A stretch of 64,000 nucleotides of DNA from Ginglymostoma cirratum (GCA_024137785.1 JAHRHZ010000062.1:21859095-21923094); one strand, 5' to 3'. Counted from the first letter of the stretch, positions 35,501-41,500 are shown. Notes: generated by a model not told the origin, from the sequence alone. Program-made: numbers and translations.

Positions 35501-38500
35501 TTCTCTATGTGACCCCAGACCCAGAACAATATGGTTGACACCTTACTGCACTCTAGGCAATTAAGAGTGGGGATAATAAATTCGGGCCTAGCCAGTGATG
35601 CTCTCTTCCCATGAATGAATAAAAAAAAATTACCATTCCATATTTATTTAGAAACCTAATACCCTTCCACCACTTCTCTTGCATACTCTAATGTTATACT
35701 GCTTAACATGTACCATATCTATTTTAACCTACATCACTGGCAGCTCTCCAGAAAATAATCAGCTTGAAGTTTTTCCTGTTTCTTGCTTTCTGCCTGACTC
35801 ATATTCCCGCCCAAGAAGCCTTTCCCTGACCACAGAGTTTATTCCCAGTTGATTGATTGTTCAAACTCCTGCAAGTTGGTCCTTGCTCAGCATCTTTCAC
35901 CCAGGATCTCGTCAACATAATACAATACTTCCAACTTACTTCACAAATGCCCTCCACAGTCTGATCTTCAACAATCTCCTGTCTTTCCTCACAGGAAAGA
36001 GAAGTGTTGGGTCCGATTCTAAGTTTGTAGTCTGGCTTTTTTGGGCTAGCACCTATCCATATATGATTCCAGTCTCCTAACCATTATCACTGGCTGATAT
36101 AACATAAGTACAGTTCTTTCAATGTCCTAGGGAATTAATTCAAAATACTCCAACTACAGCAATCAATTGCTCAAGTTTGACAAGGTGACAACAACCAAGT
36201 ACATTTCAGTGCAGTTATCTTGATTAGAAAACAAAATCAACATCTTAGGGATTTACCAGCAACCAGGAACTAAACTGCATTAGCCATATATATTCTGTGA
36301 CTACAAAAAGCAGGTCAGAGGCTAAGAATCCTGCAGCAACTCGCTCACGTCCTGCCTCTCCAAAGCCTGTCCACCATCCACAAAGCACATTTCAATAGTT
36401 GATGGAATAACCTCCACCTCCCTGGATGTGTGCAGCTGCACTGTAATGTATTGGCTGTTGCTGAAGCATATTCCCTCCTTCTCAGAGGCATCCTAACCAT
36501 ATGGTTGAGCTCGAGGGGGTCAAAACTTGGAGCGGGAGGTTTTGTATGCTTGCCAGATGTGCCGACGTTACATTACAGTGCTTCAACAAATCCATCTCAA
36601 ATTTATCCTGAAAATACCCATTAAAATTTGAAAAGATCAAGCAGGAGGAACGTGCAAGTTATAAATTTAAGATTAGTACACCAACACTACTTCACATACA
36701 AGATAAATGCAAAAGGTTAAATAGCATTAACCATGCCATTAAAGCCCAAGTTATGCGAACTCCCAAAACATATCCGATGCAAAGACTATTCTCCACTGAG
36801 CTCTTCTTACCGGGGTTTGTGACCAGTCAGCCTGAGAATAGCATCATAAAACAACGCAGGTACTGTATGACTGACAGTAATCCAATACTGATGCAAAATA
36901 GGATTGGACCGAAGGTTTACATTTGGGCGTCTCAGTGCCCGTTCTAAAGGATTCATCTTGAAGGACATATTTACATAATACTCTGCAGAGAAAATAAGTA
37001 TTACTGTTGTTTTGAACAAAGTGTACCAGACACTCATGGGACAGTGAAACATTAAAAGGAAACGTCCAGGCTTCAAAGTTAAGTTACAAAAGCATTCCCA
37101 CCATTTTGTCTACAAATCAGTTTCACAGCGCACATTTTCCATTCAGCCATGAGCTGCATAGATTAGGTGCCATCATTATAATTCTGCCTAAAATTAGAAT
37201 AAGAGGGAAATGTTAAAACGTCTTTAGGTTTATTACTCCAAACAAGAATTTGCATTCAATTTGGAAGGCGGCATTCTTGGCATTTGTGACTACTGTTAAG
37301 ACGACTGGTCAGAATCCAGATTTTTAGCTTGTTTTCCAAAAAGTATATTTTAGAACAGGGGGGATACAGCCAAAAGTTACTGCAAATGTAAATTAAATGC
37401 CTTGTCTAAAGTGTCAAAGAAACTTCCATCAGACTGGGCTGTGATCTCTTGTGACTAAAAACATGAGGAGCTGACAACTCTCTGCTCAACAGAAAGTCAT
37501 CCCCTTACAGGCTGTGTCTGAAATTTCAGGCACAATGTGTGTTTTCCCCTTTGAAGAATACACAAGGACAGGGGTTAAAAGCAGTTTCGACTCTGCTGGA
37601 GTGGACTAGTGGGATTGAATGCCTTCATGTGTACCAGCCTAGGATCAAGCGTGTTACACAGGCCACAGTCGATGATCTCCTAGAGCTAACCTTGTTCCAG
37701 GTAAAGACTCTCCCTTATTTCAAGTGCTGCAAACCAATTCAAAAAGAAAAGGAATCAGGACGATGAGACTTTTATCTGCCTCAAATCCAAGAATATTAAG
37801 AATCGACTGTTCAACTCCCAATGTCAATACTACCAGTAACCTTCATTGCAATGATCACCACATTAAACTATCTGTTCTTAAGAAACAATTCAGAGTGATG
37901 TGTGACATACTTGTTATATCTTTTTGAACTCATGTCTTACTTACATAAACTTGTTACTTTAGTATTTTCTCACTCTTTGTTAATTCAAGAATGCCTGGTT
38001 GAATTGGCTCCATTGAAAACATTTCATTTGGGTTTGGAAGAAAAAGGTACCAACAAGGGAAGGCAACCTTTCTACAATCAGAGATAACACACTGTGGAGC
38101 TGGATGACCACAGCAGGCCAGGCAGCATCAGAGGAGCAGGAAAGTTGACGTTTCAGATCGGGACCCTTCTTTCTGAAGTAGGGTTCCAACCCGAAACGTC
38201 AACTTTCCTGCTCCTCTGCTGCTGCCCGGCCTGCTGTGTTCCTCCATCTCCAGTGTGTTATCTCTGACTCCCGCTTCAGCAGTTCTTACTATTTCTTTCT
38301 ACAATCAACCTTGTTGCAACCAAGCTGGGGCAGTGGGGTGGGGGATGGAGTCAATAAAGTAGCAAAGCCCGTTCGTTCCTTCTCTGACAGAAGCTGAACA
38401 GTTTGGGGTACCCCACGTGGGACGATAACGAATTGGCAAACGTTACCTGGGGTCTGGTAAAAACATGATCTTCTGCTCCGGAAAAGTTAAATTCAATCTG

Positions 38501-41500
38501 AAAACAATCAATTCCTCTATGCCCTTTCACAGGCCATTAGGATGAATTGGCATTGAAGAACAATTTATTTACCAAAGCTATTTTTTTGCCCCTGACACCC
38601 ATTAATATTGAAATTTGACAAAGCAACATCATACTAAGGTGTACGAAATACATGTGTTAATCAACCTGAAGAGTTTGTTGAAATATATTAGCAATTCCTA
38701 AACACTTCTAAGTTCCAATGATTTCAACAGTACCTAGTGTTGGAAAATTTGGGCATCATTATATTATCCAGCCAGGAATTAGACACTTGCAGACATCCAA
38801 TCAGTGCATACAGATGCTAAAATTAGATGGCCTTGCCGTGAAGAATCTTTGCAAGCAAATAACTGGATAGAAAGTGTAGCTCGAGGCTTTTCTAAAGTTG
38901 AACCAAAAGATGAGCTCTTTCAGAAAATATACATTGCTTCAGTTAATGATACAGCACAGGGAAAAGCTAGCCACCATTACCTTGGTTTTCTTCCAGTAAG
39001 CCTGNNNNNNNNNNNNNNNNNNNNNNNNNNNNNNNNNNNNNNNNNNNNNNNNNNNNNNNNNNNNNNNNNNNNNNNNNNNNNNNNNNNNNNNNNNNNNNNN
39101 NNNNNNNNNNNNNNNNNNNNNNNNNNNNNNNNNNNNNNNNNNNNNNNNTACTCTGGGGAAGAAAAGTTGCATGGTAGTATAATATTTTTTCATAATTGCT
39201 AAAACCTCTATTGAGGCCATAGATTTATGGCTACAAAAGAATTATGATATCCACTGCATAACTTTTTACCATCATCACAAAGTGGCACTACTGTCAGAAG
39301 GTGATTTTACTGGGAAACAAATTTACTGCAGCTATTCAGGAACAAGTTCATATTTGTATTCTAATCTAACTTCTGATCAATTTAATTGTTATTTCTCCCA
39401 TTGTTGTGTAAGGAAGAGTTTTAAAATGTGAATAAACAGATAGAAAGTGCAAGTTACTTGGCTCTGGTTGTACCACCATTTGATTTAGGTTCAGTTGGAA
39501 AAATAAAACATAGTCTAGACAGAAAAAAGATTTAGTCTTCAAAAGGAATATCTAAACTGAATTTTTTCCTTAAAGCCTTGCCAAATTGACCATCCAAAAT
39601 AACAGGCATTTCATAGGTTCAACAGGCCCAATGCCATAGGAAATAAAGCAAGATGTTTGCTCACCAACCAGACATCCAAAACATAACTAGTTTTGAACAT
39701 GCAATTCTAACTGCATGAATGATGAAACAAAATACACTAAACTGTATCACTGGAATATGCAAACCATATAAATGAACGCAGATGGATTTCCAAATTGGCG
39801 TTACACATATATGCTCCAGCAGAATAAAGTCCTGATATATTGTGTCTTATTCATTCATTATTTATATGGAGATATGTTAGCCCGTGCTTATGTTACTGAA
39901 CCAGTAATCCAGTGGCCTGTAATAACGATGGAGACATCTGAATCCAAGTTCCACCATGGGAGTAGTATTTAAATCCAGTTCATAAATAAATTTGGGATAA
40001 AAAGCTCATATCAGTAATAATAACCATGAAACCATCAGGTGGTTGTAAAAACCTATCTGGATTCACAAATGGCCTTATAGCAAGGTAATTTGCAGTCTTT
40101 ACTAGGTCTGGTTTTTGTATGACCCAGATCAACTTTCAAGATGTTTGGCTTTTAACTACCCTCAAACAGCCTCACAAGCCACTCACCTGCATAGTAATGG
40201 GCAATAAACACCAGCCTTGTGGGCAATACCCATATCCAAAGATTGGAAAAGAATTATGTGATGTAGGTATCACTAGCAAGGCCAACATTTACTGTACATC
40301 CCTAATTGCTCAAGTCAGTGGTGGTGAGTTGCCTTCTTTAACCCCTGGTATCTATGTACTCCTAGAGTGCCGTTGGGAGTGCGTTCTAGGATTTTAACCT
40401 AGAAACAATGAAGGAATAGCAAGTTAAAACTTGAAGGTGCCCATGTATCCTTCTCTTTCAGATCTAGTAGTTGCAGATTTGGGCAGTGCTATTGAAGGAG
40501 ACTTAGTAACTTGCCCTGCCTTAGTGGCAAACAGAGTGAATGTTTAAGGTCGCACTCATTGAAGTGAATGGAATGGATTCCATACCAATCTTGATTGAAT
40601 CCTTTGTAGATGATGAAAATGCTTCGGGAGTCAGATGAATTACTAACTGTCCAAATTTCAGTTTCTGAGTTTCTCCTGCAGACACAATTCCTGCTTAATA
40701 GGGTCACCAGGATGTTGATGATAGGGATTTGACAATGGTCATTTCAAAATCAGCTTGGGGAAGTGACTGGATAATGTTGTTAGAAGATGGCTGCTGCTTA
40801 ATACTTATTTGGCATGAATGATATTGGCCACTCCTGTCCAAGCCTGAACAATGTCCAAGTTTTGCTGCATGAAACGGCTTTGTTATCTGGGGATTTGTCA
40901 ATTGTACTGAACAGAGTGCAATGAGCAAACATCCTGACTTCTGACTTTACTTTGGACAGAAGGTCATTAATGAAGCTGCTGAAAATTTCTGGGACTAAAA
41001 CATCGCCCTGAGGTAGTACGGCAGTGATATCCAGGGGTTAAAATGATTGGCATCCAATAACCAACCGTTTTCATTTATGCCAGGTACAATTACAGCCAGC
41101 AGAGAGTTTTCCATAAATTCCACTGACTTTTATTTTGCTCAACCCCCTTATACTGCAGGTATTCAAATGCTGCCATGTTCAGGGCAGTCACTCTCACTCA
41201 TTTTGAGGAACTTGGTTCCTTTGTCCACGTTTGGACCAAGGCTGTAATAAGGTCTGGTGCTGTATAGACCTTGCAGACTCCAAACTAAGCTCTGATGAGT
41301 AGGTTATTTGTCAGTGACCCTAGCTTAATATCAATTACATATTCCATTGTTTCATTGCTGACACAGTAGAATGATGGAGCGATAACTGATTGGATTTGAT
41401 ACGTCCTGCATTTTGTAGACAGTGCGCGCGCGCACACACACACAGGAAATTTTCACATTGCCAGGAGGATACTAACAACGTAGCTGTCCTAGAACAGCTT

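Follow-up and report, generated by a model that had tools for sequence, protein, structure and literature searches.

The FAR1 gene of the shark Ginglymostoma cirratum carries two tandem versions of exon 9, and the explanation that we consider likely is that they are the shark copy of a known FAR1 exon pair (9a/9b), that ESRP proteins probably choose between them, and that the reading frame is kept by using one copy only. This switch does exist, but the literature already describes it, and reports it for sharks and rays as well. According to the accessible text of Martinez Gomez 2021 (PMC8373072), the FAR1 exon is conserved in sharks as well as in rays, with mutually exclusive use wherever annotated. 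The human pair was named 9a and 9b in Hatje 2017 (PMC5740500, accessible part), and thus the alternative exon-9 isoforms of mammalian FAR1 that a preliminary description of this DNA had mentioned do exist; in mouse, the pair goes by the names Far1 10A/10B. The accessible part of PMC8919083 does not mention the switch, and the supplement of PMC9741552 holds no FAR1 row. What we describe is the correct rediscovery of a published switch.

The window (the whole stretch of 64,000 nucleotides analyzed, JAHRHZ010000062.1:21859095-21923094) contains FAR1 on the minus strand. A shark FAR1 protein can be aligned to it exon by exon from 58220 to 11436, and the coding span (11436..58220) comprises 11 coding exons per isoform, or 12 if both exon-9 copies are counted. 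Outside exon 9, the gene groups with FAR1 and not with FAR2 (support 100 in a tree of 33 sequences and 460 columns built without exon 9), and its nearest neighbors in that tree are Hemiscyllium and Chiloscyllium. Both NAD_binding_4 (PF07993) and Sterile (PF03015) domains were found by Pfam in shark FAR1 orthologs, and PF03015 also has matches within the window itself. Exon 7 (45962..46089, minus strand) has two donors 9 nt apart, at 45971 and 45962, the second of which adds three residues, giving proteins of 515 or 518 aa. Isoforms of both lengths are annotated from sharks to mammals, with isoform pairs in relatives of this shark. Combined with the 9a/9b choice, the two donors make four FAR1 isoforms.

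The two versions of exon 9 lie on the minus strand between constitutive exon 8 (43040..43107, 68 nt) upstream and constitutive exon 10 (20572..20701, 130 nt) downstream. Exon 9a, the conserved default copy (38981..39152), and exon 9b, an open alternative copy (36811..36982), are each 172 nt long, in phase 1→2, and preceded by an AG acceptor; the 9a donor is GTAATG and the 9b donor GTAAGA, the latter with seven of nine consensus matches. The intron between them (36983..38980) measures 1998 nt. Coordinates, lengths, phases and splice sites all agree with the preliminary description. It is important to note that N stands at 144 of the 172 positions of 9a in the copy analyzed, so only its ends can be read directly. 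However, when the 9b peptide was searched against the shark's own genome, three matches came back: 9b itself, the place of 9a, and the single exon 9 of a paralog. The match at the 9a place is full length (positions 1-56), 63% identical to 9b and free of stops (E 6e-17). Exon 9a is therefore open and homologous to 9b, which removes the objection that it might be interrupted or unrelated. Length and phase alone are weak evidence, because three of the five open AG-172-GT segments in the 22.3-kb interval are unrelated and share that shape by chance. It is the homology of 9a and 9b that exceeds chance and settles the duplication, and both the genome search and the exon-9 tree (see below) bear out the tandem duplication originally proposed. 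The two copies are neighbors, homologous, similar in length and identical in phase, as would be expected of mutually exclusive exons that arose by tandem duplication.

Splicing the exons in silico in all four combinations, with each exon-7 donor, gave the full protein (515 aa with the short donor, 518 aa with the long one) from 9a alone or 9b alone and from nothing else, which supports the earlier claim that one of the two must be used. The length of the 9a product cannot by itself reveal stops beneath the N run, and the openness of 9a rests on the genome search. With both exons spliced in, the frame stops within 9b, 291 nt ahead of the last junction; with neither, it stops in exon 10, 253 nt ahead of that junction. 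The usual criterion for nonsense-mediated decay is the 50-nt rule, and transcripts with both or neither copy are predicted decay targets under it because their stops lie more than 250 nt upstream of the last junction. Such transcripts carry an early stop and would presumably be removed by decay. Other mechanisms of exclusion are steric interference and U2/U12 incompatibility (Hatje 2017). We rejected the first because the 1998-nt intron is too long and the second because the sites are GT-AG. More than 10 reads joining both human exon-9 copies are reported in the accessible part of the same study, so exclusion is leaky.

The 9a-9b intron also holds a hairpin at 38078-38267, and it could be argued that RNA structure sets the exclusion or the choice. 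The fold is strong (190 nt, −160 kcal/mol, z −18.9), but its arms are two head-to-head copies of a common repeat end that has seven matches in the window and another seven in 70 kb of the paralog locus, and it lies more than 700 nt away from either exon. In addition, zebrafish, mouse and human switch with 9a-9b introns of about 230-300 nt (coordinates from PMC5703972). We consider a role for this structure highly improbable and rejected the hairpin as a regulator on account of its repeat origin. Another inverted-repeat call in the window is an artifact of the N run.

Exon-9 sequences across vertebrates fall into the same two types. Proteins in the databases have one or the other, and several ab initio protein models contain both, in the order 9a then 9b. 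For phylogenetic analysis, we hand-picked 66 exon-9 sequences (56 residues) from about 300 fetched, chosen to span taxa. The 23 sequences of 9b type come from sharks, rays, gar, reedfish, teleosts, amphibians, reptiles, birds, a marsupial and placentals; a branch with 100/100 support separates them from the 43 others (9a and FAR2). The comparison with teleost and tetrapod FAR1 and FAR2 exons that had been suggested in the preliminary description thus yields a single 9b group, and the suggestion that the switch is at least as old as jawed vertebrates is upheld, given that this group spans sharks to mammals. The 9b of the window lies within the group and is orthologous to bony-vertebrate 9b (100/100; 98/96 and 96/92 once invertebrate outgroups are added). 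The shark pair and the vertebrate FAR1 9a/9b pair have in common the gene, the position, the 172-nt length, the 1→2 phase, the order and orthologous sequences; they differ in the intron between the copies, which is 1998 nt in this shark and about 230-300 nt in zebrafish, mouse and human (sources as above).

The two copies have not changed at the same pace. Across 10 bony vertebrates, identity to the shark copy is 84-93% for 9a and 59-80% for 9b. Judged by sequence, 9a is the copy that resembles the ancestral exon, and 9b is the one that changes faster. Shark 9b is closer to its own 9a (63-68%) than amniote 9b is to 9a (54-55%). Exon 9b of the window is 88-93% identical to that of five other cartilaginous fish.

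The second family member in the shark genome (contig C21, 29559900-29625000) matches the FAR2 group. Its exon layout is the same as that of FAR1 over the nine coding exons found, but unlike FAR1 with its tandem pair, it has a single exon 9, which is 9a-like (a 9a+9b profile gave one match in 70 kb, and the genome search agrees). Several shark orthologs of this FAR2 paralog carry the database name “FAR1.” As to the order of the exon duplication and the FAR1/FAR2 split, with invertebrate outgroups and two long sequences dropped, the grouping of 9a with FAR2 receives support of 70/67, and the grouping of 9a with 9b is not rejected (p-AU 0.29). There were no lamprey, hagfish or amphioxus sequences among the 10 of 150 representatives listed. 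The mutually exclusive exons of Drosophila CG30427 are not a counterpart; the accessible part of Hatje 2017 marks that exon as nonorthologous.

It is very probable that both the 9a and 9b forms are spliced in this shark. The competing possibility is that this lineage has an intact 9b that it hardly uses at all, its FAR1 being constitutively 9a. Both FAR1 forms are annotated in five of the 10 cartilaginous fish placed in the exon-9 tree; among the sequences listed (15 of 67 cluster members), the other five have 9a forms only, and these include Hemiscyllium and Chiloscyllium, the nearest relatives of this shark. The coelacanth likewise has 9a isoforms only, among those listed. Also in keeping with a silent 9b, we found no sequencing run recorded as RNA that contains this FAR1 stretch, and spliced RNA of this species was not seen. 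However, 9b is open, has good splice sites (including the donor noted above) and retains its high identity to the 9b exons annotated in other sharks and rays. We compared contigs of four runs with window positions 36000-40500 (the junctions of exons 8 and 10 lie outside this interval). None of the 15 joints listed, out of 54, links 9a with 9b, which carries no weight because 9a is mostly N. Among contigs of three runs of relatives that are RNA by our guess, one covers 36810-36983, which is 9b almost to the base, followed by 28 letters with no genome match; ending at the 9b boundaries is what would be expected of a spliced 9b transcript, although we take it as a hint only. Another such contig crosses both 9b boundaries unspliced. 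There are 11 differences between 9b and a relative's contig, and five of the eight listed are silent, which also argues against a silent exon. Overall, we regard a silent 9b as very unlikely.

As for what selects the copy, 9b is promoted by ESRP in zebrafish, mouse and human cells, according to the accessible parts of Burguera 2017 (PMC5703972) and of an ESRP1 eCLIP preprint (10.1101/2021.05.18.444719; journal version PMC9550651). In the first of these, the FAR1 pair is listed as depending on Esrp in zebrafish, in mouse and in one human line out of three. Inclusion of 9b was 79/45% in wild-type zebrafish and 9/20% in the esrp double knockout, with 9a showing the reverse; in mouse epidermis, it went from 7/26% to 0/1% on Esrp loss; and in human MB231 cells, ESRP overexpression raised it from 4% to 26%. 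Knockdown in two of three human cell systems hardly shifted 9b (2-4% to 1-3%, and 0 to 0). One row of the same supplement gives zebrafish 9b as 107 nt and “silenced,” contradicting the inclusion values. In the preprint, ESRP1 binds directly in mouse epidermis and appears to enhance the second exon. In the window, the first 100 nt past the 9b donor (36711..36810, minus strand) contain five UGG and are a candidate ESRP site; this count is reached by 3.5% of 461 background windows (6.2%, 7.7% and 20.5% at the other sizes), and it is suggestive but not significant over the four sizes. By analogy with these other species, we consider ESRP control of 9a/9b in this shark reasonably probable. ESRP proteins would then choose the copy, with the 9b enzyme made in epithelial cells and the 9a enzyme elsewhere.

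The FGFR IIIb/IIIc exons are a similar case, in that they too are tandem duplicates, and ESRP switches between them according to whether a cell is epithelial or not. However, in FGFR2, ESRP activates the upstream exon, whereas in FAR1 it favors the downstream one. Further, the FGFR2 IIIb/IIIc swap changes ligand specificity, unlike the FAR1 swap, for which there is no clear known change of activity.

FAR1 supplies alcohols for ether lipids and waxes, and the preliminary description proposed that the swap, at the start of the C-terminal domain, may tune acyl-chain specificity or regulation. Exon 9 encodes residues 322-379 of 518, most of which connect the NAD-binding domain to the Sterile domain. 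Given that Pfam places the start of the Sterile (FAR_C) domain at residue 360, the stated location holds for the last third of the exon, whereas the rest is upstream of the domain. Stated in full, the specificity proposal holds that the swap shifts the enzyme's preference for acyl-CoA chain length or saturation (wax versus ether lipid) and has a role in shark-liver alkylglycerols. Certainly, the copies differ: at positions 323, 324, 343, 346, 348, 349, 358, 359 and 362, and likewise at 370, none of the 23 9b sequences has the 9a consensus residue. Use in liver is also possible, as ESRP2 is expressed in mammalian hepatocytes. Moreover, the 9b form is present in a wax gland, having been cloned from chicken preen gland and found active (Hellenbrand 2011; PMC3265415). 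According to the accessible text of that paper, however, the chicken 9a form (GgFAR1db) and the 9b form (GgFAR1) gave “very similar” alcohol profiles in yeast, even though few copies have diverged as far as chicken 9b. It should be noted that this result is one sentence without data shown, and is the sole side-by-side assay found. It speaks against a tuning of acyl-chain specificity. The connection to shark-liver alkylglycerols is not supported either: the switch occurs in all jawed vertebrate groups sampled and, being common to bony fish, amphibians, birds and mammals, is no shark adaptation, and no paper on the liver link came up in the literature searched, which included the titles listed for 15 of 92 papers. 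Retuned substrate preference is, in our view, unlikely.

We instead favor a change of enzyme level, stability or partners over a change of product, because the chicken isoforms are “very similar” (PMC3265415, accessible part). Both enzymes probably remain active fatty acyl-CoA reductases, much alike in chain-length range, as shown in chicken only. The likeliest gain would lie in surface epithelia and glands, where the enzyme's level, stability or partners would change by cell type, rather than in a new product, and we give this about even chances of being correct. An ESRP-linked FAR1 isoform could control how much lipid skin and glands produce. Structural resources contributed little. The AlphaFold2 model of the 9b isoform has a mean pLDDT of 51.8 (below 50 over residues 306-365) and was not used for that reason. 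Within the family, a structure has been solved only for a distant plant-type FAR (7EOZ), which aligns with gaps over exon 9 and for which a literature search found no paper. The ESM Atlas had nothing useful for FAR1.

The human copy of 9b looks decayed, as far as its sequence can tell. It is 157 nt long (Hatje 2017 supplement; PMC5703972), and its level is eightfold lower (Hatje 2017; both papers in their accessible parts). As judged by eye, its peptide lacks Pro360, Leu368, Gly372, Lys374 and Pro375, each of which is present in all 23 non-human 9b exons, and Trp352, which 22 of the 23 retain. Mouse lemur has an intact copy. We met no literature remarking on this decay, in searches aimed at other points. 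A speculative possibility, somewhat doubtful as it stands, is that 9b is an epithelial isoform kept for >400 million years for a regulatory property (e.g., escape from plasmalogen feedback degradation) and not for substrate choice, and that the human copy has decayed. If true, ESRP in humans would turn on an enzyme that no longer works, and the intact ancestral form would be well represented by shark 9b. The proposal that 9b compensates the FAR1 p.Asp365Gly disease allele (Hatje 2017, accessible part) would then be wrong. Comparing intact shark 9b with the apparently decayed human 9b would be a simple enzyme comparison, and it bears on how exon-9a FAR1-deficiency alleles are read.

Elsewhere in the window, ARAGORN called a tRNA-Ile (AAT) inside a FAR1 intron (55175-55246, minus strand), which may be a tRNA-derived repeat. 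There are decayed retroelement copies at about 56700-57800 and at 5360-6570 (plus strand); the translation of the latter, which we take to be Penelope-like, shows a GIY-YIG-like stretch, with no Pfam match in the frames scanned. An open, charged stretch of 74 aa at 2962-3183 (plus strand), also without a Pfam match, may be an exon of a neighboring gene.
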